DNA of 64,000 nucleotides, taken from contig CDROCS010002618.1 of NCBI GenBank assembly GCA_977020255.1, forward strand, positions 1 to 64,000, read 5' to 3'. The translations under genes were made by a program, and so were the position numbers. The notes beneath the pieces are model-generated. The model had not been told where the DNA came from, searched no databases, and saw only the letters and a list, made by a program, of their open reading frames with translations. The stretch is from Obrimoposthia wandeli (lineage: Eukaryota). The first letter of the stretch is position 1; each line of letters begins with the position of its first letter. Positions 1 to 18,500 of this stretch are shown piece by piece.

Positions 1-1344
1 AACAAATAAATAATTACATATAGAAAATTTATTTTAAGTTGCTATAATAATTTAAGACAATCAAAAGTTTCAAATAAATCACACAGGCGACGGGCAAAAC
101 GTTTATATTTGCCTACAGTTTAAACGCAGTTAAATTTGTTAAAATTTGAACTTTAACAACAAACAAGCATAAAATAAAAAACAAATGTTAAAATAATGAA
201 TTTGGGAAGCAAGTTTTGCTGCAGTTTGTTTTTACAATATACATAAGTAAATTTTAAAATATTTTGCCAATCTTTCCCATATTGATACTTTCCCATGTTG
301 AGCAACATTTGTTTTGAGAAAACCGATTCATTTAAAATGCGGGATATGGGATATTGTGACTGTGACTGAATTTCCTAGTAACTTCTGTAACCTTATTTTG
401 ACATCTATTGAAAGCGGCCCAGACACCCGTGAAATTACATTGTAACTAAGCGATAAGAAACAAATGTTGTATTATTTAAGGATTCGCATTGCCGCGGAGA
501 TTTGCGTGCCCATTTTGGGTTGCCTTTTGAAAAAATTAAAATGTTGCTAAACAAAAAATTGTTGCACAAATTAATTGGAACTTCAAAATAATTCGAGAGA
601 ATCAATTTTTTATTGACAAAATTGTCTAAAATAATTCTGTTTCGTTTGAAATTTTGACTATTTTAGGATCAATTAAACAAAAATTCAATTGTATCGTTTA
701 GTTCACAGTTTCTCTATTTTCATCGATATTTAGCAGTTATAGATGATAAAATGACGGCTCATAAATATCTACCTTATTTGAAATTGATTAATTAATACTC
801 AGGGGTCAGTTACAGGATTATTCCACGGCAGTTAATGTTTATTAATTTTTCTATTTTATAACCTGATAGAATCTCTCATCCACATTACATTTTATTTATC
901 ACTCCTTTAAACAACTTTTCTGATTTTTAAAGTATAATTTTAAATTTATTCGTATGTAATAATTAAACAACAGAGAACAGAAATAGGCTGGGCACAAAAT
1001 GTCTTATATAACCCAATCTATAAACTAACAGAAAAAATTAAATAACTTTAACACTGTTGTATGAAGAGTTGTATTCGGCAGTTTTATTTACATAATAATG
1101 GATAATAAAACTCGTAAAGAAAGTTAATTAAATTGTATGTTACTCTTAACATTTTATTGCGATATCATTCTCATCTTTATGATCATAAAAACAATAAATT
1201 TTCTGTGAGAGAGATCCAATGTCAACTGGCAAAATGGCACAAGAGGCAGCTCTCGCCAACCCCAGAATAACCTTAACCGGCACGTTACCATCGTGAAATT
1301 CACAAATCTTCTCAAAAATAATTGCCACAGAATTTGTTAAAATA

Positions 1345-1808
1345 AATGTGCTAGTGTGGAAGTGTGCTGGTGTATAAATGTGCTAGTGTGAAAGTGTGCT
1401 GGTGTATAATTGTGTTGGTGTGGAAGTGTGCTGGTGTATAAATGTGCTAGTGTGAAAGTGTGCTGGTGTATAATTGTGTTGGTGTGGAAGTGTGCTGGTG
1501 TATAAATGTGCTGGTGTGGAAGTGTGCTGGTGTGAAACTTTGCTGGTGTGTAATTGTGTTGGTGTATATGTTTGCTGGTGTATAAATGTGCTGGTGTGGA
1601 AGTGTGCTGGTGTATAAATGTGCTGGTGTGGAAGTGTGCTGGTGTATAAATGTGCTGGTGTGGAAGTGTGCTGGTGTGAAACTTTGCTGGTGTGTAATTG
1701 TGTTGGTGTATATGTTTGCTGGTGTATAAATGTGCTGGTGTGGAAGTGTGCTGGTGTATAAATGTACTGGTGTGGAAGTGTGCTGGTGTATAAATGTGCT
1801 GGTGTGGA
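1345..1808. repeat. Intronic minisatellite, 16-bp subunits forming 32-bp units (gtgtgctggtgtataaatgtgctggtgtggaa) with higher-order repetition
   Basis: Directly visible tandem array; produces the repetitive HTSTPAHLY tail of ORF 1383..2078, which is not real coding sequence. Confidence 0.95.
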
Positions 1809-1814
1809 ACTTAC

Positions 1815-2027
1815 CTCGTAACTAAAATAGCCCAGGTACTGAGGCAAGAAAGTGCGCGGATTCTGATGAAGGTTGAGGTAGTACTGGGGCAGAAGATGCA
1901 CCAGGAACTGTCCCTCCTTGCGAGTCACCGTCTTCAACACGAACCGGCCGTCTGCACTGTGGAAGAAAATTGAGCCACTCGCCCCGGGGTTTGGCTGCTC
2001 CAACAGAGACTCGCCGCACAGCGACTC
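1815..2027 (-). CDS. PIP5K1: Single exon of a type I phosphatidylinositol-4-phosphate 5-kinase
   Basis: ESLCGESLLEQPNPGASGSIFFHSADGRFVLKTVTRKEGQFLVHLLPQYYLNLHQNPRTFLPQYLGYFSYE matches the PIP5K core (NPGASGS, IKT, YxNLxQNPRTLLP). Bounded by acceptor cccag and donor gtaagt; 213 nt. Confidence 0.88.
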
Positions 2028-2429
2028 CTGGGCACGAATGTAAGATGTCACTCCGTATCCCCGTTGCAGCCGTGTCACTCTACCTCACCCTTCCTCAACC
2101 TATCCCAACGCCATCTAATCTATGCCTTTGTAATTCAGATACTCGTAACTAAAATATTTAAATATGTTTAGGTTGAATGTCCATTTTTCGACGAGAATAT
2201 TACCCCTCTCTCTAGCTTGCTCAATAGCAGATATTTGACAAAACAATAAACGGATCCAATGTTATTTGAATAAATCTCAACTTTCAACGTTTTATGTAAA
2301 TCGACACAAATTGTTTATTTAACATTGCCAGTTACAAAATATTTTGATGCTTATTATAATCAGAGCGATTCAAGAGGTTGTGATTATGTGGGCACATTCG
2401 GATATATCTTCCGGATTAGAAAATTTGAT

Positions 2430-2610
2430 TGAATGCCAACGAACCTTCCACATAAACTGATTCATCGCGTGCAAACCATTCTGAACAAATCAGTACGATT
2501 AATTTTAAAGTAATTAAAATTGAATCAGTGAGCAACCTTGAAAAACTTCATTGGCTTCCTATAAGAGCGTATATGGAATATAAAGCTAATACGCTAACAC
2601 AAAATTCCTT
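2430..2610 (+). mobile_element. Decayed C-terminus of an L2/CR1/Crack-type LINE ORF2
   Basis: With one frameshift reads NLPHKLIHRVQTILNKSVRLILK..SNLEKLHWLPIRAYMEYK, matching the LQxxQNxAARL...LHWLPxxxRIxYK signature of this clade. Confidence 0.7.
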
Positions 2611-3060
2611 ATTGTATTGTTAGAAGCATTTCATAAACAAAAAGCTCTACGAAAGAATGACGAGAAAAGCAAAGGAGCAAATATTATACTAAAAAAGCTA
2701 TATAATATGTTGCCTCGTCGAAATACCAAGAATTTACAAACCTACAAAAGGACTTTTGATAACTTTCCTCTTTAGATATGCTGCAGTGAAGAAACATTTA
2801 AGAAGGATAAAGAAAGTTCAGCAATTCTGAATATCTTATATATTAAATCTCTCTTTCGATACCCGTCCATCGTGGAACTTGAACACTCTGTAACTCTTTA
2901 CATTGCGAAAGCCAAGATGTAATTCATTCTTTAGTTCTCCTTCAACTGATCATCCTAAGTAATCCAACCCATCCAACCATATCTGTTGCATTAGCATATT
3001 TACCTTTATAATAAAAGAACTTACGAACCCTAAAAGGGTCAAACTCTATAGACAAGATAC

Positions 3061-6030
3061 TTAGAAATTCTCGCTTACTGATATTTGTACCATACTCCAC
3101 TTTTGTTTTAGACGTAAAATAATCTTCTTGAGGATCCCGCTGAATTCCTTATGTTTTACTTGACGAACTTCGTCTTCTATTCTTAATACTTTCGCTTGAT
3201 CTGATATGGGAATCAGTTTGTTAATCTCGTCGCTACTTGTCATCGACTTTTTGGCTTCAATCTTCGCTCCTTTCCATATTTATTTTACTTCTGTCATTGT
3301 GCTTTTGGCCAGGTCTTCCTTGTCTACTGAACACATTGTGTCATCCATAGAAGTATTTTTCAACATCAGTTTTGCACTTTCTGGGTATTTATTTATGTAA
3401 TTTTCTGCATTTTCCCTCGATACCATTTGTGCTAAAAATGGTGATACATTTAGACCGAAACCACTCGTTCATATTCATAAGTTGATGTATTTCCTTCTTT
3501 ATCGTTCCATAAGAAACATAACCATTTTCGATCTGAACTATCTACTTTTACTTGCAAATACATTTCCGTCACATCGCAAACCAACGCAATCTTCTTTTTT
3601 CTGAATCTAAGAAGGATTCCATCAAATCTCCCTGTAGCTTTGTCCTGCTATCAATGAAATCGTTCAAACATTTACCACAATCTTTTGCTGCTGCATCAAA
3701 CACTGTTCTTACCTTAGTCGTATTTCTATCCCACTTTATTACTGGAAAAGGCGGGTAAATACCCTCGTGTCTCCTTTGTATCTTCTTTCTTAAGTTTTCT
3801 TATATACCCTTTATCTACTTGGTCATGAATAATCTTTGCATACTCTTCCGCTCATTCATTATCTTTCCTTACTCAAACTATTTTGTAAACTTTGCAATAT
3901 TCTTATTTCCGTTTGTTCGTTAGCCTGAAGATCTGCAATTCTTCTTTCCATGGAATTTAACTACATACCTTCCTTCTTCCACTACCATATCTTTTACACT
4001 GCTTTCATAATTTTATTTTTCTGTTTTAGTCATCATTTTGTTTCGTCGAAAATATTTTGCACCTCCCAAAATCGACGTAATTGACAATTTAATTCCATGT
4101 TACTCAAATAACTTTTGATAAAGTTTGTTTGATTTTCGTGTGTCGTACCCAAGTCTGCTTCACCTACACATGTCCATCCTAACGGTGTCCTTCGCGCTAT
4201 CAGTTCATTCGACATTCCCCATAGTTCTTCAATACATTTATGCATTTCATGTAAATCTGCTCCTATTAGCATTTCTACTTTCTTTCCGTTATTGCTTATC
4301 GGGAACTTGATATCTTGTAGATGTTTCCATCTCTTATTGATATTGTTTCAGTCTACTACTCGTAAATCCCCCGTTACTTATTTTATCGCTAGTGCATGTA
4401 CCCTCCTGAATGATTTTCCAAAATTTTGAATTATAAAGGATATCTTTTTGCATTCTAAGTTCTTCATTAGACTACCAATCACTCCTACTGGAGTTGTCAT
4501 TTCTTCCCCTTCCAAGCCTAATCGGCAGCTGCTTTGCTAATGTAACTTACAGTGCTTGCATCAGCCAATAATGCATTAATTTCCTTCCATCCGTTCTTCA
4601 TGATTACTGGCACAGTCCTTAACATCACAGTTAACTTGGTATCAACGTGTAAATTTGTTTCATATTTCAATCCATTATTCTTTACATGTAATAACCAATT
4701 CTGTTTGGTTTTACATCCATCGATCTTACATAGTGGATCTTTTCTGCACTCTTTGACACAGTGCCCTGGTTTTAGGAAGTTACTACACAGCTTCTTCTGC
4801 TTAACTGCTTTCCATCTTTCTTCCGTATTCATATGCTTAAACTTGAAACATTGATCGGTATAATAATGTGCTTATCCACAATTATGACATTTTTCCATAC
4901 TTCGGGAGCCGTTTTTGCTCGTGCTGGATTTGCCTTTGGTTGATATGGTGGCAATGTTGTTTTTGATTGTTCTTGACCTATGTTCCCTGGCTCGATGCTA
5001 TAACATACTCATTTTCTGGTATCTGTTCGCCCTTGATTATATTTGTCGGTTTTGAAAACTCTTTCTCCTTGGTCAGGTTTTCTTTTCGTTTCCTGACATA
5101 CCTCTTCTGCTTCCCTTAAATCATCCGTCTTTTTATTGGGTTCATTTCAGCATTTCCTTCATTGAATCTTCTTCCACGTCTTCTCTTCTTCCAACTCCTG
5201 TCCACTCTAGAATAGCTTGACGATGTAACTTTTGCAAGAATGTCTGATATAAGTAACTATCCCCCGCATCCCCATTCTTGTTTAAATTATTTAACTTCAA
5301 TAATGTTCTCTCTAACAACTCACTAAACTTTTCGAATTCCTTAACTTCATCGCATCGTATTGCTTGGAAGATATGAACTTCATTGATGATATTTCTGTAA
5401 CTTCTTTCGTTACCCCCATACCTTTGATCTAATCTTTCTAACGCAGTGTCTTAGGCTTTTGATGACTACCCTAAATTCTCAATTATCTTGAGGGTTCCTG
5501 GTCCTAAACATGGTCGCAGATGTAAAAGCTTGCTTACCTTTTCGGCGTTTACTTTTCCGATTAATACAATAAACATTGCTTTCCAGTTCTCGAATGTTGC
5601 ACTATAACCATTAAATGTAGGCAACGTTAACCTATTTAATTCTGCGAACTCATGTTTCTTGCTTTGCACTTTGCTATGATTATCTTCCCATGTAACATTA
5701 TTTGATGTAGAAGCTTTTCTGTTGTCTATATCTGCTTGCAATGATTCTTCTGACAATCTACCTACTTCGTCATGCAATCGTGGTATTTCTTCTTATTCTT
5801 TTTCTAATTCCTCAGCCTTTTCATCCTCTTCTAATTGTATTGCACTTAAACGATCTGTAACTTTTAGAAAGGTATCTTCATACTCCTCTAATTTTTCTTC
5901 GGCATTTTACTGTATCTTATGGCTTGTAATGTTAAGTTACGACACTTAGTTAATTGCGCCTTTTCGTATCGTTTGTTTGCTAAGGCAATCTCTAGCTCTT
6001 TTCCTTTTTCATAGTATGTTACTTCCTTTA
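3061..6030 (-). mobile_element. Degenerate, internally deleted BEL/Pao LTR retrotransposon (gag - protease region - RT - integrase tail)
   Basis: DUF1759-like LNRLTLPTFNG (5466-5777); zinc knuckle ERWKAVKQKKLC..GHCVKEC (4518-4832); LIGAD..RTPLGWTCVG..LRRFWE (4033-4272); RT TTKVRTVFDAAA..ILLRFRKKKIALVCD..SPFLA..SMDD (about 3250-3770); then a jump to integrase C-terminal EDEVRQVK near 3185. LTRs not identified. Confidence 0.88.
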
Positions 6031-6464
6031 CTTGTATCAAGTGAACTATTGTTCCGCTTGAATACTATTTTCCTATAAGGTCCCTTCTTAATCTAACTGC
6101 TCTCCACTTAACATGAACTTTTCCTCATTGATGGGAACCTTCCCAATCATAAATCCTATCTTTTATTGATTCAATCGTGACCTCTAAGTCTTATTCTATG
6201 TTTATTTTTTACCTGTCAGTGTTTTAATCACAATGTTAACACCTCTCCTTAACCTTAATAATACCTGTATTGTAGCCCCACTTTTTATTCCATATTCACT
6301 TAAACTATTATTATTGAGCCTCTTGCCTCATATAATAAAAGTTGTGCTCTAGAGTTTATTCTTTCTATAAACATTACCAAATCTTGTATTTCTCTTATGG
6401 TACACCTTGGTGCTACCGACAACAAACTTGTCTTACCTGTGAATGTTTTAATACATATTTGCAT
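6028..6464 (-). pseudogene. Two tandem ubiquitin/NEDD8-like domains (frameshifted) immediately 5' of BEL/Pao gag
   Basis: Ubl1 6464-6241: MQICIKTFTGKTSLLSVAPRCTIREIQ..QLLLY[fs]GKRLNNNSLSEYGIKSGATIQVLLRLRRG. Ubl2 6240-6028: VNIVIKTLTGKK..TIESIKDRIYDWEG[fs]VPINEEKFMLSGEQLD*EGTL*ENSIQA[fs]GTIVHLIQV. Confidence 0.85.
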
Positions 6465-7199
6465 TTTATTTAATTTAGACTTAAAATAACTCGAAAACTT
6501 TTTATTAAGCAAAAAACATCCTTTGTCTCTTCCCACAATAAGTCTTGTAACTCTCACCCTTTTACCCTCATACACCCAACCGGCTCCTCTTTGTATGTCC
6601 TCTGCCGCAAACTCTGTCGTTTTAATCTGCTGTTCTTCTGATATCTTCTGTTTCAGTTCTTGGTGCGATTCCCCTCGGCATGTCAACCTCCATATTCTTT
6701 CTTTTGTCTTCCATTCTTACACTCATCATCCTCGGCTCCTTTTCCCCAATTTCCTTTTCTTGAATAAATCATCCACCTTTTTAATATCTTCCATCTGCTC
6801 TTATTCTTGGCATATTTTTCCTTAGCTCCCTGAGCATCTCATTATTCCATGCCGTGGTGTCTATTTCTTCTAATATCCTCTCATCATGTTTCTTTTCTGC
6901 TCGGCCTATAAGCCATATGCTAATAACTGACTTCACACCTATCGATTTTTCGGTTCTTATTTATTCGGTTCAACAGAAACTATCTCTTGCAGTGAATCTG
7001 CCAACAACTAGGTAGTCTTTTATACGTGAGCAGTGCTCCCCTTCGACCCTCCCATTGCTCTGCGGATTCAAAACAATCGAATCACAATTATTTAATTTAT
7101 CACTAGTTAGATCACAGGTTCGATCGCAAATGTTATCATCAGTCATTGTCGCATCAGTCAAGCTGCGGAATCCAACAAGTTCTGTCGCCGTCTTCCTCG

Positions 7200-7345
7200 T
7201 TTCTACCAGTCATACAGGGATTTTCTTTCTGACCTTCTTTCATCCGTGAAACACAATCTCCGAAGTCGGCCAATCCATCACCGGTTGATGTAGAATGATA
7301 TCTCAACATTTCATTTAACCTTTCTCTGTTCACCCCAAGAGGTTC
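7200..7345 (-). pseudogene. HSP90: Hsp90 middle-domain fragment
   Basis: LGVNRERLNEMLRYHSTSTGDGLADFGDCVSRMKEGQKENPCMTG matches the Hsp90 LRYHSxxSGDExxSLxDYVxRMKEGQKxIYYITG motif; isolated and diverged. Confidence 0.72.
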
Positions 7346-9489
7346 ACCTTCGCCATCCACAACACTTTTTTCAGACACCCTGGCTTAATATTTTCAATTT
7401 CATCAATTTTAAGAACCGTGCTGTCTGAACTTCTTTGGCTCTTAATATCACTACATTTCTCTTGAACCACACTCTGCTACCATGTTTTCACAAAAAATCA
7501 TAATTCATAACCATTACTTTTATTCACGAACTTTTACCACCATTATTTTAGAAAAATTTACTTTAAGCATCTTTTGATGTATTAAAAATCTTTTTGACCT
7601 TGAAGGTCGTTAGCTTTTAATTTTTATTATTTTACAATATAATGTATAATTAAACTTTTTTTTTCATTTTGAAGCCAATGCAATTTCTAAAACATTTTAT
7701 TAATCCTCTAATAAATAGTTAAGGGTATTTTTGTAATAGTTTTTAACGTTTTTGTTTGCGTTAAAATATATTTATAATTAAAATTATGTTTTTAGTGTGT
7801 ATACATTTAGATAGATCTAATCCATTACATTTTGGTCATTATTTTTACCATAAACTCAAAATAAAGGTTGCTAGAGAGATTTGGTGACGTTCTTTAAGAG
7901 AGTTGTTTCAATTAATGAAGATGTCGTAACATTCTGCTACATGAATCTCTTCCTCTGTAGGAATAACTTGCTAAACCAGACCTACCGATCACTCAGAGAA
8001 GATCCCGGAAGAGACAGATAAGTCGGAGCTTGTTCGTGTCTAACACGGAGGAAGAAAAGAGATGGATGTTGACTCGTCAGTCAGGACTAGACAATGGGCT
8101 CGCAAATATTTGGCAGCGGCTACAGCAAACAATCTCGGATGCCAGCCACATCCTTCTTTCCCCCTAGAGCCTGGAATTTGCCTTTTCCCCTTGCAATTTC
8201 CTGTACTCATCACTAACGGCAACAAGGATGGCAACCCCCACACAGACGCTACCTCCTGCGGAAACTTCCCAGCAAAGATATTCTAGTTGTTAACAAATAA
8301 TTGAGCTATTGTGTTCTTTGCCCTTTACATTTTGTGTGTTTCATGATGCAGTTGAAATTTTCATGATTTTTAACTTTCCTTAATTTAACGTATTTAGATT
8401 TGGAATTTTATTGTAAGGGACAAAGATTCAAAAGTGTAAGTTATATTCTCAACTTTATAATGAACTGCTGATATGAGAAAGTATCGTTAAGTATGAGAAG
8501 AAAAAAACAGTTCCCATGGTCGGTAATTGAACCATGGATCTCAATACGAGCTTGTCGTGGATTCTACAATGGAACTAAGATCTCTCTAGTTAACCCAACT
8601 AAAAATTTCTGGTTGGGATAATGTATTTATAATTTGTAAGTAGAATTATTGTCAAATATTTTAACGATAACCATCAAGTGTAGAGTGACATCTTGGTAAT
8701 AATAATCGAGTTAAATGAAGAAAATTCATCTGATAGAAGAAATCCGATTTGATCCGAGGTGAGGATCTGGACTCAGTTTACGAAAACAGAAAATGTATTA
8801 AAACGTTATTTAATGTAAAAATGTTCAAAATTCTTTAAATTCACGGCCTTAACACAAATTTAACATAATCTCTAAAAACATTTGTGATACAGTTTTACCC
8901 CAATATGACAACTTACATCTAAAATAGTTCGTCTACAAATTTTAGGAATTATGTTGGAATGCTATTTTTCACTTCCAATTTTTGCTAATTAGCAAGCGTA
9001 ACATTTATAGAGAAAACATGCTGGGAATCTGGAATGACTGTATTTGCTCATCACCTTTGGACTTAACGACGTTTGGCAGAGGATATCGGGCAATTTTCTC
9101 AACTCCCAGAGGAGTAATTTCTTCTTCCTTTTTGTCCATCTTTAATTTCAAATCTAATATAATACACATTTCACGAATAATTAATAATGTTGATGCATTA
9201 AAACAAATCATTCATCCCAATTTAACTTCTCTAAATATTAAAAAATTCAAATATTTATGAAAATGTTAATTTTTATAATTTCTTATGTTTATCATTCAAA
9301 GCTGCTAAATTCCTGTAAGAAATAAACATTATGAACTAAACAATTAAATTAAATATGTTTAAATCCTGAAAATTTCACACGAAACTGGATTTTAAAGAAT
9401 TACCTTTTTACAATTATGTATGTAGATTGTACTAATAAATATACTATGGAATGTTTTTCTTATAAAACTGAAGTTTACAATTATTTCAT

Positions 9490-11335
9490 AATAATGTTAG
9501 GTAATAATTTTATTCTCTATTCAGGATTCAGTTTGACCAGTGCCTTCAAGTCACTACTCCCAAATCCAGCTTATCCTAATATCATCCCGCCCAAGATTGA
9601 GCTCATCCAATATTCTGAAACGTACAGTCTTTTACCAAGGGTATTAGAGCTGGGATGACCTTCGTCAGACAACACCACATCAAGGCGAAGAATGGCAATA
9701 CTATATAGATATTATTAATCTTTTTGGGTGGGCTATGTCCCAGTTTTACTCATAGCATATTTTTAGTGGATTTATGATCCGATTGAACTCACCAACATTG
9801 TCAACAAATTTGGCTCTATGGATTTGACCACATCTAAATATGCACATTTATTTGAAGTATATCTATCTATTCCTGATAATATACATACCTTTCTTGCCGA
9901 TCTCTCCTCGGTTTCTATTAAACAGTGTCCGCCTAGTTGTAAAGTTCCTAAGCTTTTGCCAACTCATTACCCGAAAAAGCATTATGTTATTCACTCACGA
10001 CTTTTAGAATTTGATGGGGGTCTTGGAGCAAAAATATATAAAGTTAATAGTGCAATGAGTTTTAATCAAAATATTGTTTTAGTAGAGTATATTGACTCTA
10101 ATTCACGCAAGCCATCTGCTGTTACAGAAGATTTTGACTCTAATTCACGCAAGCCATCTGCTGATACAGAAGATTTTGACTCTAATTCACGCAAGCCATC
10201 TGCTGCTACAAAAGATTTTGACTCTAATTCACGCAAGCCATCTGCTGCTACAGAAGATTTTGACTCTAATTCACGCAAGCCATCTGCTGCTACAGAAGAT
10301 TTTGACTCTAATTCACGCAAGCCATCTGCTGCTACAGAAGATTTTGACTCTAATTCACGCAAGCCATCTGCTGTTACAGAAGATTTTGACACTAATTCAC
10401 GCAAGCCATCTGCTGCTACAGAAGATTTTGACTCTAATTCAAGCAAGCCATCTGCTGCTACAGAAGATTTGACTCTAATTTACGCAAGCCATCTGCTGCT
10501 ACAGAAGATTTTGACTCTAATTCACGCAAGCCATCTGCTGCTACAGAAGATTTTGACTCTAATTCACGCAAGCCATCTGCTGTTACAGAAGATTTTGACA
10601 CTAATTCACGCAAGCCATCTGCTGCTACAGAAAATTTTGAAAAATTAAAGGTTGATTCGCTTTTTGGTAAGTTAATTGAAAATATTTTCAAGCGTTTAAA
10701 CCTCCGAATTTGTTATTTACTTTTACTAGCAAAGCTCAATTTAGAAAATCGATTGAGATAGACGACGATTTAGTTGCAGTATTATTAAATAAAGAGTTAG
10801 TATGTTTAGATCGTCCTTCTTATATTGGCCAAGCCGTATTAGACCTAAGTAGACTTCGTATATATCAGCTGCAGTTTGTAGAGTTGGAGAAGTATCGTTA
10901 CCAATTTGATAGTGATTTCCGAATGCTGGCTGGTGACACTGACAGTTTCTTCTTAAGCTGTCGAAATGCCGCTTTCCCAGATCAACTTTTACCGGCTATG
11001 ATAGCAAATGGTTTATTACACACGTCAAAGTTTCCAAAAACTCATCCACTATATACTAGAGCGAACACTCCCATAGGGAAGTTTAAGGATGAAAGTAAAA
11101 GGGTTAAGATTTTTAGCGAATGTATATATATATGCTGACACAGAAAAGCTCAGAATCCATGAAGCACGAGACATATAAGTAGGTCTACAATAAAGAGAGT
11201 GAGTTCACCAGCGCCGGTTCCAGTCCATCAACCATCAGCTGTTTACCATAGTCTCTTCCTAGGTCGCATTAAGTAACTACGAAACAAGCAAGAACGAGTC
11301 AGCAGCATATGGACATTTTTGGCATCCTGACTGAT
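9490..11335 (+). mobile_element. polB: Maverick/Polinton-type protein-primed PolB, C-terminal half, disrupted
   Basis: GIRAGMTFV..YIDIINLFGWAM (motif A), KVDSLFGKLIEN (motif B), AGDTDSFF (motif C), IGKFKDE, and C-terminal NHQLFT..AYGH; homologous to the minus-strand PolB copies; several stops and frameshifts. Confidence 0.9.
10094..10639 (+). repeat. 42-bp tandem repeat (13 copies, DSNSRKPSAATEDF) inside PolB just before motif B
   Basis: Units start at 10094, 10136, 10178 and so on; a 1-bp deletion near 10470 shifts the frame. Confidence 0.95.
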
Positions 11336-14300
11336 TTTAGTAAAAAAAATTATAATTCTTTATGTTCAATATATATCTTTAAAAATTGTCTTGTCCTTAT
11401 TGTGTAATTTTCAAATACTTACAATAAATAAAAAGAAATTTAAAAATAATTTACTAAAGATTTAACAACAAAATATTTAAAACAAAAAATTTACTACAAT
11501 TTTTTTATAAAAGATTTCAGAACAAAACTTCTTTTTTTTTTTACAATAAAATGTTTTCAACAAAAATTTTTGAAATTAGTTAATATCTGAAATAAATGAC
11601 GTATGACAAAAACTGTAAAAATATTGAAAAAAAAAAAATTGAAATTAAAACTTTCTTTTTAAAATAGTTTTATTAAAAATTTTGAACAAAAATTTGAAAG
11701 TTTTGTATTTTTTTATATCGACTTTTGGAGGTCTAATAAAATTCAAACTAAGTATTTTGTGTTTTTGAAAAGTAGAAAAATAAAAGATGTGAATGTTTTT
11801 GACCTTGTAATAAATTTTGAAGGTTTCGTACCTTTGAAAGTTGACTCTCAAAGGTCTGATCAAGGTCAGATAACTTTTAAAAGCCCAAAGTTAAAATTTT
11901 GAAGGTTTAAGACCACGGTAATAATTTTTGAAGGTTTTGATGAAGGTGAAACCAAGTGCATTATAATTCTCATTAAGTAGAAAAATAAATGTTTGAAAGT
12001 TTTTGAAAGTTCACCCTTAAATGTTTGATCTAGGTATCTAGTATACAGCCCTAAAGAACTGAAGAACACACACACCTACAGGAAGAAGAATAATAGCATG
12101 TATGACCGGAGAGAAAATCCGTGCAGGGGTGCATTAGACCTACTAGATCTACCTACTTTATCCCACTTCGGATAATTTCCGTCTAAATATGGATTTTTCA
12201 GATTAATTGAGATTAAATAGTAAACTTATTTGAAAGTTTTAATCAATATTTTTGTTAGAAAGAAAAAGATAGAAATTAAATGAAGTACGTTTTTTAATAA
12301 AATGAAACCTCATAACTTAATATTAATTTGATAAATTACACCGATATATAAAATTAAAAACATTTGGATATAAATCGGACTTAATTAGTGCCATTCAAGT
12401 CGATCCAGATTTTTAATCGAGTTCATTATTGTCGCATGGCCTTGACACAGTTAGCAAATTAACAACTTGTCTCTTGGGGTCATACTCGTTGCATTAACTT
12501 TATAACAAATTAAATGTCATGTGTATTATACTTTGTATGTATTGTGATTTTTATTTGAACTTTATGTCAACTCTTAAAACCTTTACTGACAATTTATTAA
12601 AATGGTGCAAATCTATTTTAAATTTTATAACCACACTGTTATATTAATTTTCATTTTGTCATAACAAATAATCGCAAATCTAATCATATGACTTTGAAAT
12701 GGACGGACTTAACTGGGTCAATAAGCCGTCAAAAAGCATTCGAAAATTAAGCTGACATAAAAACTGAAGGACAGTGTACAAGTCATTCTGTACAAGTTCC
12801 CAAAACGGTTCCACAGTCGGTAACTGAAACGTAGAAGAATTTTACTGGGAATGTAACCTCATTGAAGCAGCGTTTCTGGGTATCCCAATTCCCGAATATC
12901 GATGGGCACTGCCCAAATAAGGACAGTCAAGTTTCACGTTCGTGTGAATCTGGTTAAAGGAAGGAAATTCCACTTCAGTGAGTCGATAAAGATGGAACAT
13001 TTTGATTATAGAAAGATCTGCAAATTGGCCGTGAAATATCATCACCAGTGTTTCTCCTTTAACCACTATTTCTGCTTCTATCTGGGAGCAACCCGCCGCC
13101 CTCCCGTGCAGTGCAGTGCTGGAAAACACAGTTGCAGTTGGGGTTTGTTGTTCTGAATATCGACCCTCAGCTGAAGAATCTCAGCCGTCGGAGGGCAGTG
13201 GTTGCAGGCGGGAGAAGTCCGTGTTGTAGAAATGGGATATAGGGATGATGCGTACGGAGGAAATAGACTGACAAAGGAACGTTTGAATCGAATAGAAAAA
13301 TTTATTTTATATTCAGTCAATAAAATTATTTTTTATTTTATCCGAATTCTGTAAGGCTGATATGGACCTTTGCGTATTAAGTAAATTATATTTTTTATAT
13401 TTTTCCTATGGTGATCTTATAAATTATTAGAAATGTACTAAATGAAAAGTTATTAAAATGAGTCATTTGCAGTATTATCATTATTATTAATTCGAAATAA
13501 ATAAAGCAGGGAGTATGGCCTGTCGGGAGAATAAAGGATTTAAGAGCGAATAAGGAAGCAGAAGTCTGGAGCTGTGTGGTAAATGTAGGCGGGAGAGAGT
13601 GTGTGAGACTGGTAGAAAAGCTGTGGCCGTTGGAGATGGAAGCGAGTGAACATAGGTGTTGACAAACCTGGGGTTTGAGTTTGGTCAAGGGGATGGGAAT
13701 GTTGTGACGTCAAGTTGACCGGTTGGCAACTGTCTGATCGTGGTTGGTTTTTCGCGGATGGGAGCGGAGTTGCGCGTTGGCGACTAGTTAAGTGCCCACA
13801 TTAGCTAGTTAATATATGTCGATTGTGGCATTTTATTGACATATTGTGTGAGTTGTGTGGATTGCGGTGATGTGTGGTGGTTGTTGAGGGTTGGTTTTAA
13901 TTGGCTGCTGTGAGATGAGGATATTGATGTCGTTATGAATTGGATTATAATGCTTTCTAATATATGCCCACTGCTTTGCGATCTAAATAGAATATAAAAT
14001 AAAATGTTCATTCCAAGTCAAAAGCATTTTCTTGTGAGCACCTGCCTAGGGTAGCAACTTTCAGGGAGACGCGTAGATTTTGGTCATCGAAATATTATAA
14101 GCAGATTAGTATTTGTTTGTGAAATAGTTAACATTGATATTGTGGGATTTGTTGTGGATAAAAGAATCAAGAATTGCGAATAGTTTATTAATGGTATATT
14201 AAATATCATAGATATAAAAAAATTTTTCTGGTTGCTGAACGGGTGGTTTGTAGTTGGGGATATTTGTTTTTGGAATTTGAATAGCTTTCAAATCTTCGTT

Positions 14301-14354
14301 CGATTTATTCTTATTTTTCTTAGTTTTGCTAATTAGATTATCGACCATGTAATT

Positions 14355-14465
14355 GTGTAATAAGATAAGACATGAAAACTATATTCACAGTAAACACATG
14401 CAGGTACAAATATTCCCTGTAGCAATACACAGCAAGGTGTCTTCTACTTCATGTACTTCAATGGC
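14355..14465 (-). repeat. Dispersed repeat with (TCTTA)n-type tail, possible SINE/LINE 3' end; inverted homologue at 38465-38570
   Basis: taagataaga..aaaactatattca..cagcaatacac..aaggtgtcttctacttcatgta aligns to the reverse complement of 38465-38570. Confidence 0.6.
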
Positions 14466-14749
14466 CATCGGTACATCAAATACATAATTTATTAATATTC
14501 ATAATATTCATCTTTTCAAGCTAATCATCATCAATTTTATTAATATTTAATAAATGTTATTAATTAAATTTTATTTAATTTATTTACAATCTAATTTGAA
14601 ATTAAGTCACGACAATTGACTGTCATACTATTTAAATATGACAGTCAATCTAACACTTTAAAACATCGAGCAATACTTGTGGAATTGAATCAGCGAATTC
14701 TTTTGTAAAGTTTGTAAAACATCGTGAAGTAATTGTGAAATCGCAGCAA

Positions 14750-15215
14750 GTGGGTCGCCCTACACGGTAAGTAGGTCTCCCTACAAGGAAAGTAGGTCTC
14801 CCTACACGGGAAATACGTCTCCCTACATGGGAAGTGGGTCTCCCTACATGGGAAATACGTCTCCCTACACGGGAAGTACGTCTCCCTACATGGGAAGTGG
14901 GTCTCCCTACGCAGCAAGTGGGTCGCCCTACACGGTAAGTAGGTCTCCCTACAAGGAAAGTAGGTCTCCCTACACGGGAAATACGTCTCCCTACATGGGA
15001 AGTGGGTCTCCCTACACGGGAAATACGTCTCCCTACATGGGAAGTGGGTCTCCCTACATGGGAAGTGGGTCTCCCTACATGGAAAGTAGGTCTCCCTACA
15101 TGAGAAATACGTCTCCCTACATGGGAAGTGGGTCTCCCTACATGGGAAGTGGGTCTCCCTACATGGGAAATACGTCTCCCTACATGGGAAGTGGGTCTCC
15201 CTACACGGGAAGTAC
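14750..15215. repeat. 21-bp minisatellite (gggaagtgggtctccctacat), about 22 copies
   Basis: Visible tandem array; gives the CRETHFP and GSGSPYM repeat ORFs on the two strands. Confidence 0.95.
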
Positions 15216-15557
15216 GTCACATTGCAGAGGAAGTAGATGAAATGTTTATCTTGCTCACCCGGAACTGCTTCTCCCCAACTTGAAAGACATGCCGGAAGAA
15301 AGCAAAAGCACGCGGAGCGTGTGTTCGTAGTCGGAAGTCAGAGGAGAGATCGTGAGGGGGGCTCGATGCCGATCCTGAACGGGGGAAGTTGTAGAGATGA
15401 TTGACTTTGAAGTCAGAAAGAAGAAGCGTCTGTGCGGAGTCATTGGCGGAAGGAGAGGCAGTTGCGACTTCAATGCCCAGTTGCAGTGCTCTGCGGATCT
15501 CGTAGGTTGCTTGCTGCAATAGAAATGTAGGGTAAAATTTACACAGAGTTAAATGTG

Positions 15558-18500
15558 CAGTAGATTTTGACAAAATTTGAGACTCTTTACGGGTCATTTG
15601 AATCTTTCTTCTCATTTATACTTTCTCTGATATTTTGAAACATTGCCTAAACATAGCATCAACTAGGCAAAGTTCAAGTTGGGAGAGTTGAATCTCTGAT
15701 TGGCAAATATTTGTCGATTCTCATTGTACATCTCTCTTGATCGGGAATTAAATAAAATATTTTAATATAATAGTTAAATTTCTCTTCATCAGTTAATATT
15801 TCTAAACGTATTAAAAGCAGAAAATATTGTAATTTTTGTAATCAAAAATGCTAATTTGTCGTTTATTAATTAGGACAGTTATTTAGATGGAATTATCGGA
15901 CTTTTTATCCCTTCCGACAGCCAAGGTAGTCATCAGGGTGCATATGGGGTGAATCTCCGTTTTGTGTGAGTGAGTGAGTGAGAGAGTGAGACAGTGAGAG
16001 AGTGAGTGAGNNNNNNNNNNNNNNNNNNNNNNNNNNNNNNNNNNNNNNNNNNNNNNNNNNNNNNNNNNNNNNNNNNNNNNNNNNNNNNNNNNNNNNNNNN
16101 NNNNNNNNNNNNNNNNNNNNNNNNNNNNNNNNNNNNNNNNNNNNNNNNNNNNNNNNNNNNNNNNNNNNNNNNNNNNNNNNNNNNNNNNNNNNNNNNNNNN
16201 NNNNNNNNNNNNNNNNNNNNNNNNNNNNNNNNNNNNNNNNNNNNNNNNNNNNNNNNNNNNNNNNNNNNNNNNNNNNNNNNNNNNNNNNNNNNNNNNNNNN
16301 NNNNNNNNNNNNNNNNNNNNNNNNNNNNNNNNNNNNNNNNNNNNNNNNNNNNNNNNNNNNNNNNNNNNNNNNNNNNNNNNNNNNNNNNNNNNNNNNNNNN
16401 NNNNNNNNNNNNNNNNNNNNNNNNNNNNNNNNNNNNNNNNNNNNNNNNNNNNNNNNNNNNNNNNNNNNNNNNNNNNNNNNNNNNNNNNNNNNNNNNNNNN
16501 NNNNNNNNNNNAAGAGATAGAAACTCAACAGCGTTTCTCCGGCGGCAAGTCTGCATGGAACAATCTCAGTGATGGTCTCGTTGCCAGGGAGCCATAACAA
16601 CAACCAGCACAACATTGCAGATTTCGTGACGCCACTGATTTCCGCTGCCGCACCAACATCCGGCTCATCAGCCGGGATATCGTAGATGGGAGCACCTCTG
16701 ATAACCCCAGCTGTTTCTGTGAGCCTGTCTTTCTCGACTAATGCACCCAGGGTCACCCCAAATACTGCGCCTTTGCCAAGGGACTTTGACCGCTGACGTC
16801 ACCACATTATTACGTCATTTTCCGTCGTTTTGATGTGTTATTTTCTCTAGTTAATTTGTGAAAAAATTCATTTACACTTATTTTTGCTCTGTTCATTGAA
16901 TTTAGATAAAAGCCGGCACAACAGAACAAATGACATTCTAAATTTATTGACATATTTTCAAACATGTGTTAATATTTTTTCAAGAGGCTCAGTCTGTTTC
17001 AACTTAGATTCAGAGAGGAGAGGCACATTTGGAAAAGGCTGATAATTTTTGGTTCCTGCTCTACAGTTTTTCCAAAGATACTATTACTTTTTAACTTGTA
17101 AAAATCTCGATCGAATTTGCTAGTGGCCAAATTACGTTTTTTTCGAATTCTTCTCAATATAGTCTTTAAACACAAAGTTTTGACTGAAGCTTATAGCACA
17201 ATGAATTCGAGTAACTTTCGCTCCCAACTTTATGTAGAATTGAAGAAGCCGCCAATGCACAACATAATTCAACTTGTCTTCATGGGTTAACAATAATTTC
17301 TTAATCTTTGAATTAGGTGGGCATTGATGAACAGGCGCTACTGGAAGATCATCTAATTTATCATGCACATTGGGAGGGATTTTTATGTCCACCTCAACCA
17401 AATAAACGACGTCGGATGAAACTGTATCAACAGTAGCCATATCTGTCATCAACTTATTCAACTGATCCACATCATAAACCCACTTAAAGTTGGCATGAGG
17501 TAGAGGTTGAGTAAGCGCTCACCCATACAAATTATTAATATCGATGTACAGAATCTCCGTGGATTGATTTTTGACAACATGATGTTTGTTGACAAAAGTC
17601 ATTCCACCGCGTATACCATAATCATACATTTGATACATCGCGGGATCTTGCAGTAACTCGATATTAATTTTAAGAGATTTTATTGCTGTTGCCCATGAAA
17701 GACCAGGTAAACTAAAGAAATGCATGGGATCTAGCCCATATTTTGCTAAAGATTTTACACGAAAGGACTCAAAAACATCAGCTAAAAGATAAACGTCTAA
17801 CTTCATATAATAAAGCATATATTCGAGAAGATTTTGACAATTATTCACCCAAAATGTACGGGCCTCATTATAGTCTTGAAGATTTACACCCTCAAATTCA
17901 GTTATGGGTGGGATTTCAGTTGTATTTTCTAAATCTGCGAAAGTTTTCGCAAATTTATACGGAAAAATCCCCTTATCGTTAACCGAAACTGGGAACACTG
18001 ACTGTGTAATTGGCCATGCATTTAAAGATGCCGTTAAATTTTTTAAAGACCCGCTCAAAAACTGCAGAATCTATGAATCTTAAACTGCAGAATTCAGTAT
18101 ATGCAGTTAAAGATAAATATTTCTCTGAAGTTTGAGGTATACATGAAATTTCCCAAGAGCTTAATGTACCCAACGCGTATTTAAGTATATGATGCAAATC
18201 ATATCCTTTGAGGTTATGAAACACGATGGGAATGCGTGGTTTTTTAGGGAGACAACGGCCAAGGTTACAAAGGTTGCACGCCGCTCCCAAGTATCGCCCC
18301 GTAACATGATCGTGATCTCTGAATAACTTAGACTGGGTTCCACACAAATAACATAATCTACAAGAATTAAAATTAACCCAGTCTATGCCTGTCATGATCA
18401 TTGCTTGATGAGCATTGAGATCATACCACGGTTTGACATTTGTTGTTCCTAATTCCTCTAATTTTATCATAAAAACTAAAATACAATTTGGACCGGAAAA

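Follow-up and report, generated by a model that had tools for sequence, protein, structure and literature searches.

A ubiquitin-like domain ending in Gly-Gly directly precedes Gag in a lineage of BEL/Pao retrotransposons of Obrimoposthia wandeli

BEL/Pao retrotransposons (Belpaoviridae) have been described (de la Chaux and Wagner 2011, PMC3118150) as elements with short long terminal repeats (LTRs), target-site duplications of 5-6 bp, a Gag containing DUF1759 and zinc knuckles, and the order protease, reverse transcriptase (RT), Peptidase_A17, integrase and DUF5641. The element studied here, located on the minus strand of a 64,000-nucleotide stretch of the Obrimoposthia wandeli genome (assembly GCA_977020255.1, contig CDROCS010002618.1, positions 1 to 64,000; hereafter, the window), belongs to a lineage that resembles them in these respects. 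What belongs to the present lineage is a ubiquitin-like domain (Ubl) ending in Gly-Gly (GG) placed before Gag, together with a leader composed of a mosaic of host-gene pieces; in the nearest named relatives, the Mya arenaria proteins P0132 and P0148, Gag starts with its own methionine.

Parts of this arrangement are known from other systems. Cytopathic pestiviruses (bovine viral diarrhoea virus Osloss, CP1, CP Rit; PMC8310069) carry ubiquitin or NEDD8 insertions, and share with the present lineage a ubiquitin captured in a polyprotein, a GG directly before the released protein and host fragments upstream of ubiquitin; a deubiquitinase cut releases authentic NS3. However, those described there are sporadic recombinants with a near-intact host ubiquitin in which NS3 is freed, whereas here the trait is old and inherited, the protein that would be freed is Gag, and the Ubl is far diverged. 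The order Ubl-GG-passenger is also that of the ubiquitin/FUBI ribosomal precursors (UBA52, RPS27A, FAU; PMC10611586), among which FUBI is a diverged Ubl still cut by particular USP enzymes; the Ubl of these precursors stands at the very N-terminus of host genes, while the present one is internal and embedded in a mobile element. The leader, in turn, recalls LTR-mediated retroposition and maize Bs1 (Tan et al. 2016, PMC5131818), where partial, intron-less pieces of multiple genes form a chimeric frame, template switching is given as the source of captured host mRNA pieces, and Pao and BEL elements are among the carriers of such retrocopies. The Bs1-type features seen here are partial pieces of several unlinked host genes and the loss of host introns (in ASF1 and, less clearly, in a GRP94-like gene). 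In the chimeras described in that paper the element is interrupted or replaced and non-autonomous; the present pieces share one frame with a complete gag-pol, upstream of which they lie behind a putative cut site.

The architecture LTR, primer-binding site, host-gene leader, Ubl(s), GG, Gag and Pol is spread over many families, and the window copy is a decayed member of this lineage with an added domain, Ubl2. An earlier note on this DNA, made from the sequence alone, had read two Ubls in tandem at the N-terminus of a BEL/Pao Gag. The tandem is indeed seen on the minus strand, at 6464-6029 and beyond, and runs into the coiled coil and DUF1759 without a spacer: in the three-frame translation Ubl1 starts with MQICIK and ends with LLRLRRG, and Ubl2 directly abuts it (VNIVIKTLTGKK...HLIQV), followed by KEVTYYEKGK... 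of the coiled coil and then by DUF1759. It does not form the N-terminus, since a further domain (Ubl0) and a coding leader are located upstream inside the element (Table 1). Frame shifts and stops interrupt both Ubl1 and Ubl2 of the window copy, which stops near position 2850, without integrase and 3' LTR. The same break pattern recurs in its three segmental duplicates, which indicates that these mutations are old. The block holding the element and its flanks, at least 16 kb long, is ~94-99% identical in four contigs (window 1-17000; C4619, C2794, C6613), which were therefore counted as one insertion.

In the BEL/Pao LTR-retrotransposon family of the window copy, referred to as family A, the 611-base stretch containing both Ubls has 24 matches in the genome (24/24 candidates scored), corresponding to 20 independent insertions, as four matches have the window's flanks and two others common flanks, with the flanks of two partial matches lying outside this check. 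In natural copies, which the earlier note had proposed to inspect for intact Ubl-Ubl-Gag frames, the junction is open without any correction, as in L006 (250 amino acids, aa, spanning Ubl1-Ubl2-Gag, with two stretches matching Pfam ubiquitin at E 3e-31), L012 (203 aa), L011 (170 aa) and L005 (161 aa), and of the 22 copies covering Ubl2, 19 have it in the frame of Gag. As the Ubls continue in frame into Gag in natural copies, a chance retrocopy does not account for them. Twelve stop-free natural frames, taken from different copies, join up in register by their overlaps and span the leader through DUF1759. Searches with Gag or leader also retrieved six loci of the same family without the Ubls; all of them are 5' truncations or internal deletions from which the Gag start is also gone, so that the objection anticipated in the earlier note, i.e., family copies simply devoid of the Ubl region, was not borne out, and its notion of a retrotransposon lineage with captured Ubls agrees with the junction shared by about 20 independent copies. 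What it had missed is the single ubiquitin-GG-Gag junction common to the clade, the mosaic leader and the position of the GG on the first Ubl.

Family-A elements are 7-8 kb BEL/Pao elements with a polypurine tract and short LTRs (TG...CA), flanked in four copies by target-site duplications of 5-6 bp (AGCTG in C1711, TCCGA in C555, CTTGG in C777 and CATGGG in C220); the copies in C1481 and C1711 extend to the 3' LTR. In sister elements both zf-CCHC and PF03564 were found with Pfam; a family-C duplication is TTGAC, the LTR of this family ends in TA, and the Pol order protease, RT, Peptidase_A17/RNase H, integrase, DUF5641 is present in L137 (family C). The divergence among family-A copies is ~8%, with near-neutral decay in every region, RT included, indicating that the copies examined are dead.

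A Ubl stands before Gag in other families as well. A ubiquitin profile run on the genome gave 5275 first-look candidates, of which 150 were scored; once tandem arrays, the host genes for ubiquitin and NEDD8 and two pieces adjoining a ubiquitin pseudogene had been left out, 36 of 38 further top matches lie directly 5' of a BEL Gag. The Ubl likewise precedes Gag directly in eight additional loci, picked for their long frames, and the junction is present in 29 of the 30 best DUF1759 loci. In at least six sister families (B, B2, C, D, E/E2, F) the last Ubl ends in GG immediately before Gag. The junction GG is kept in 82 of 102 aligned copies (7 of 109 loci gave no junction), i.e., in 37/37 copies of family B, 4/4 of C, 16/20 of D, 7/9 of E2, 14/16 of F, 3/12 of E and 1/4 of B2, and the loss of GG in dead copies is at background level (24/284 vs 326/4226 G sites, p 0.65). 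When ten family representatives picked as GG-bearing copies are compared, only L43, L71, L73, G75 and G76 of the 76 ubiquitin positions are kept in all ten, even though their identity to ubiquitin ranges from 17/71 to 62/76; the L-x-L-x-G-G tail is in frame before Gag even in the Ubl with 17/71 identity, and the residue following it is not proline but mostly S, T, M, G, V or I. G47 and K48 are retained in 9/10 representatives, and I44, V70 and H68 of the hydrophobic patch in 4, 2 and 4 of 10, respectively. Families A, C, D, E and F match Pfam ubiquitin. The family-B Ubl has no tblastn match to ubiquitin; its RLRLLGG tail is found in 37/37 copies, and its structural model, from an alignment that held ubiquitin-like rows, has a predicted beta-grasp fold of the ubiquitin type (Z 10.9, root-mean-square deviation 1.9, 68 residues vs ISG15/ubiquitin). 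Between families, the ratio of nonsynonymous to synonymous substitution rates (dN/dS) is 0.27-0.45 for the Ubl and 0.10-0.16 for Ubl0, compared with 0.12-0.32 for Gag and 0.11 for RT; the Ubls are thus under purifying selection between families. For the leader piece of family B, an abundant family, a first look gave 709 candidates. The assembly also holds bacterial contigs (L127-L135; htpG with operon-like neighbours), so that genome-wide counts include some non-host DNA.

Relatives outside this genome were retrieved with a Gag-only profile (8347 at E <=0.001). Ubiquitin precedes Gag in six of the 152 proteins examined, while a seventh (P0128) starts at a KLKGG tail; these seven, from ENA, JGI and MetaClust records, are seven of the eight best matches, and one of them, P0123, has an HSP90 piece upstream of its ubiquitin. 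P0128 also has a CFAP58-like end, and its Gag carries CCCH zinc fingers. A Gag tree of 57 rows (10 from the genome and 47 of 150 outside matches; quick method, midpoint root, profile built from ubiquitin-bearing families) placed all 17 ubiquitin-bearing rows and one protein starting inside Gag on one side of a branch with a Shimodaira-Hasegawa-like approximate likelihood ratio support of 98. On the other side, which includes the M. arenaria proteins, Gag mostly begins with Met about where the GG stands, five relatives checked there having longer or unplaced starts. A shared coiled-coil motif lies 17-31 residues past the GG in ubiquitin-bearing elements and 16-42 past Met1 in 11 ubiquitin-free relatives, and an S/T-D/E-E start is frequent both after the GG and after this Met1. 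Protein searches with ubiquitin in the query gave no match at longer lengths, and the 120 matches listed otherwise were of polyubiquitin type, none with DUF1759; at longer lengths, the Gag profile gave 2 weak matches, both without ubiquitin. No description of BEL/Pao or other LTR retrotransposons with ubiquitin in Gag was found in the literature available at abstract level (outside subscription journals, Repbase, GyDB and supplements), and the word "ubiquitin" is missing from the main texts of PMC3118150 and PMC5408684.

As regards the start of the frame, an ATG is formed at the joint between LTR and primer-binding site, from the last LTR base and the first two primer-site bases, and in three natural copies a single open frame runs from it through the GG into Gag (1102, 879 and 839 aa). 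An array carries a tRNA end complementary to the primer site, and ARAGORN recognised tRNA-Met in 1 of 6 loci tested; an Rfam search of L282 gave no match, and a tRNA pattern search including the CCA end found nothing. L282 and L288 (C307, C737) are 227-bp tandem arrays with tRNA-Met ends, many units of which are apparently internally deleted. The ubiquitin Met1 is missing in families C, D and E and in the outside proteins P0123 and P0130, and the first Met past the GG is 42 residues away in family B and 38 in family F, which suggests that Gag is best reached from upstream. A look for RNA records listed none, and four runs of contigs, of unspecified kind and from one sample, had no GT..AG joint listed, a result without bearing on splicing.

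The family-A leader, located between primer site and Ubl1, is coding and measures ~1.4 kb in a short and ~2.5 kb in a long subfamily. It contains pieces of HDAC1 (PDB E 2e-28), UBA1 (2e-9), HSP90 (Pfam 7e-21) and ASF1 (2e-5), besides a weak cis-prenyltransferase match (E 0.004-0.06); part of it is lost from the window copy, where the HDAC1/UBA1/prenyltransferase block of the long subfamily is missing. Host parents were located for HDAC1 (77% amino acid and 74% DNA identity), UBA1 (41% identity), a GRP94-like gene, cytosolic HSP90 and ASF1. At precisely the points that the element pieces read through uninterrupted, the ASF1 gene and the GRP94-like gene of the host carry GT-AG introns, which points to capture from spliced mRNA. 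Other families carry other pieces: mitochondrial HSP60 in B (E 3e-49 in a PDB sequence search; Pfam missed the HSP60 pieces), DEAD helicase in B2, pyruvate kinase in C, spectrin in D, EF1-gamma in E, and HSP70-family, p97 and Snf7 in F. These pieces recur in several copies of their own family, with the only exception of Snf7 (two duplicate loci only); the leaders of L225 and L140 were searched without an identity being assigned. Thirteen family-B copies with near-identical Gag (L225-L243, L279) have at least three unrelated leaders directly after the primer site (5, 5 and 2 copies, and one chimera), and in L280 (6944-7939, minus strand) an HSP60 leader 93% identical to that of family B stands ahead of another family's Gag, which suggests leader exchange. 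This HSP60 piece, the one recent piece tested, has a dN/dS of 0.97 between family B and L280, i.e., it is neutral. The low dN/dS of the HDAC1 and GRP94 pieces vs the host genes was dropped as a sign of selection on the leader, as synonymous sites are saturated and a capture in an earlier host species would look alike. The 720-bp LTR of L137 (family C; 2473-3192, with the 3' repeat) itself includes a pyruvate-kinase piece (Pfam E 3e-23), and in L016 (oriented 2172-3563) the Gag part of one family-A copy is replaced by other frames, which we take to resemble Polinton capsid and protease genes.

The three Ubls of family A differ in their tails. Ubl1, placed after Ubl0 where families B and F have their single Ubl, is ubiquitin-derived judging from its diagnostic residues (9-10 ubiquitin-type vs 4-5 NEDD8-type). 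In the 20 independent copies its tail is GG in 11, GC in 4, GV in 1 and RG in 2, while 2 keep the GG bases out of frame; hence the GG, whose conservation the earlier note had proposed to check, is intact in just over half of them and broken in 7. Ubl2 ends in HLIQVK or near variants, with GG in 0 of 22 covering copies, and the NEDD8-type tail LALRGG was not found in any of the same 22. The label "NEDD8-like" previously given to Ubl2 was not confirmed: identities are 28-32 to host ubiquitin and 28-30 to host NEDD8, diagnostic residues 9-10 vs 6-9, DNA identity 0.57 vs 0.53, and tree support 76/39 with a long-branch warning, so that its sequence may derive from ubiquitin, from NEDD8 or from another element's ubiquitin. 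Ubl1 and Ubl2 are 49% alike in DNA; host ubiquitin and NEDD8 are separate genes. Being located between GG and Gag, Ubl2 shifts the conserved Gag motif to 97 residues past the Ubl1 tail, vs the usual 17-31; the position of I44 is taken by M in this domain, and V70-G76 are missing from it. Ubl0 matches Pfam ubiquitin in one copy (E 4e-4) and gave no BLASTP alignment to host ubiquitin; the family-B model is predicted to match linear di-ubiquitin, and the ESM Atlas places ubiquitin clusters at 0.87-0.88 below unnamed top matches, which is a lead only. An AlphaFold model of the family-A di-Ubl was set aside, its mean predicted local distance difference test score being 42.6. The genome also has tandem arrays built of a diverged ubiquitin-like unit (L223 in C2592, L224 in C1351, and C2050, C1456, C4682), with ~270-bp spacing, own frames of 82-90 aa and no BEL Gag nearby, and a diverged host ubiquitin-S27a paralogue (L145, 4192-4419; 54/76 identical to ubiquitin) adjoins the normal gene.

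It is known that deubiquitinases cut linear ubiquitin fusions after the GG. By analogy with pestiviruses, host deubiquitinases probably cut after the GG of this lineage, freeing Gag from a variable leader. Translation would begin at the primer-site ATG, the cut would release Gag-Pol from the upstream leader, and a Gag start like that of the ubiquitin-free relatives would be restored. Template switching might bring in sense, in-frame host mRNA pieces upstream, which would be tolerated and undergo fast turnover because Gag is freed by the cut. In family A, Ubl2, devoid of GG, would have been gained just behind the cut and, as the GG belongs to the first Ubl, would stay on Gag as a cap, which may be a tolerated passenger. 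Of the functions suggested in the earlier note, i.e., Gag processing, stability or recruitment of the endosomal sorting complex required for transport (ESCRT), processing is the best supported: conservation concerns the tail, which proteases and E1 read, and not the I44 patch of ubiquitin receptors, and this favours processing over ESCRT recruitment.

Several observations weigh against this reading. The ATG at the joint arises automatically wherever CA meets TGG (58 of 65 sites), and internal starts are possible, as the Ubl1 of family A has a Met and family D mostly has one right after the GG. The GG is intact in only 11 of the 20 family-A copies, and the four GC copies could go back to a variant that was itself transposed in the past, even though no grouping was seen among the three tested. 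In family E the GG is broken in 9 of 12 copies, an excess loss (9/44 vs 71/827, p 0.014, one of five tests). The choice of GG-bearing representatives bears on the column count, and recognition of the diverged family-B Ubl by host deubiquitinases is uncertain; in the family-B copy L150 the Ubl block has been removed by an internal deletion. Within family A, the ratio of nonsynonymous to synonymous differences (pN/pS) is 0.6-1.5 over the regions (Ubl1 0.81, Ubl2 0.88), and, as it is near-neutral even in RT, a selection signal on Ubl1/Ubl2 is not seen there. Lastly, the exon-junction argument from GRP94 is weaker than that from ASF1, since intronless HSP90 paralogues match its right half equally.

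The most serious alternative, in itself unlikely, is that translation of Gag begins at an internal Met, located at or just past the Ubl, with ubiquitin as an expression or folding aid, like that of ribosomal ubiquitin fusions, and the leader acting as RNA, e.g., as a host-gene decoy against small-RNA silencing. The methionines of families A and D and the neutral HSP60 piece are in line with it, as is the capture of HSP90, HDAC1 and ASF1, which are linked to silencing; the pyruvate kinase, EF1G, spectrin and HSP60 pieces, however, look like abundant mRNAs rather than silencing factors. The leaders are sense and in frame with Gag, Met1 is missing in most families, and B and F have no Met near the GG. 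[quoted passage not shown] A slightly less probable possibility is that the fusion is mainly a degradation device, the Ubls, cut or uncut, routing leader or Gag to the proteasome and limiting copy number. Uncleavable Ubls, such as Ubl0 and Ubl2, resemble ubiquitin-fusion degradation substrates, and the retention of G47 and K48 would fit; yet the I44 patch for proteasome receptors is poorly retained, the residues after the GG are mostly stabilising by the N-end rule, and family B is abundant.

It appears improbable that Ubl2, or an uncut ubiquitin, is left on Gag to recruit ESCRT for particle release, like engineered ubiquitin-Gag fusions. Ubiquitin can stand in for late domains (PMC2958808), and Ubl2, without GG in all 22 copies, would stay on Gag; nevertheless, the I44 and V70-G76 features are altered or missing in Ubl2, all sister families are devoid of this domain, and no envelope frame follows Pol in L137. 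Finally, a polyubiquitin or ubiquitin-NEDD8 retrocopy abutting a truncated element by chance could be proposed from the window copy alone, which is broken and 3'-truncated, but is refuted by the independent insertions sharing a junction inside LTRs and target-site duplications, by the low likeness of Ubl1 and Ubl2 and by the separate host genes for ubiquitin and NEDD8.

Table 1. Features of the BEL/Pao copy in the window.
Feature	Position	Strand	Evidence
5' LTR of BEL/Pao element, ~157 bp, CA end	7483..7639	-	match to C1711 terminal repeat; ends of the LTR and target-site duplications determined from sister copies
Primer-binding site	7465..7482	-	17/18 bases complementary to host tRNA-Met 3' end
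Leader, decayed HSP90-family pieces	7175..7416	-	tblastn with natural family pieces; Pfam HSP90 E 7e-21 in C220; host parents
Leader, middle part; an internal deletion took out the ASF1 piece that other copies have	6787..7131	-	
Ubl0, third, strongly diverged ubiquitin-like domain without GG; common to families B, B2, F	6504..6729	-	
Ubl1, ubiquitin-derived; putative deubiquitinase cut site; tail here LRLRRG	6241..6464	-	
Ubl2, extra ubiquitin-like domain, confined to family A	6029..6240	-	
Gag N-terminal coiled coil	5703..6028	-	
DUF1759, BEL/Pao Gag core	5193..5633	-	Pfam PF03564 E 3.6e-8
Three zinc knuckles and aspartic protease region, decayed	4036..4880	-	
Decayed reverse transcriptase and beginning of the RNase H region	2850..4035	-	blastn vs C1711; tblastn with family-C Pol

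Elsewhere in the window, an isolated PIP5K kinase piece (1386-2084, minus strand; Pfam E 2e-20) runs into a tandem repeat; broken frames with a 42-bp tandem repeat (9767-11138, plus strand), presumably of a Polinton-type DNA polymerase B, gave no Pfam match to DNA polymerase B; and a short piece at 13504-13641 (plus strand) is like the C-terminal end of a BEL/Pao Pol.

The Ubl-GG cut would give a simple reason for the presence of host-gene mosaics alongside a complete gag-pol, which is usually lost in LTR elements with captured genes. A ubiquitin cut site, sporadic in pestivirus recombinants, is here inherited in a retrotransposon lineage known from several independent samples, which offers a direct way to test host deubiquitinases as cofactors of retrotransposons, while the series of Ubls shows how far ubiquitin can drift with the GG tail held. 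The lineage also accounts for thousands of ubiquitin-like matches and hundreds of chaperone-like pieces in the genome, an annotation hazard. More tentatively, it is possible that this is an old and widespread BEL/Pao clade using ubiquitin as a permanent, host-operated cut site, with a cargo bay upstream that is filled in each family, swapped, and released as a GG-ended chimera. If so, the bays would hold pieces of abundant host mRNAs (chaperones, HDAC1, E1, p97, Snf7), the released GG-ended product could undergo conjugation or counteract proteostasis and silencing as a dominant-negative decoy, and instead of a dead-end retrocopy the element would represent an autonomous exon-shuffling machine.

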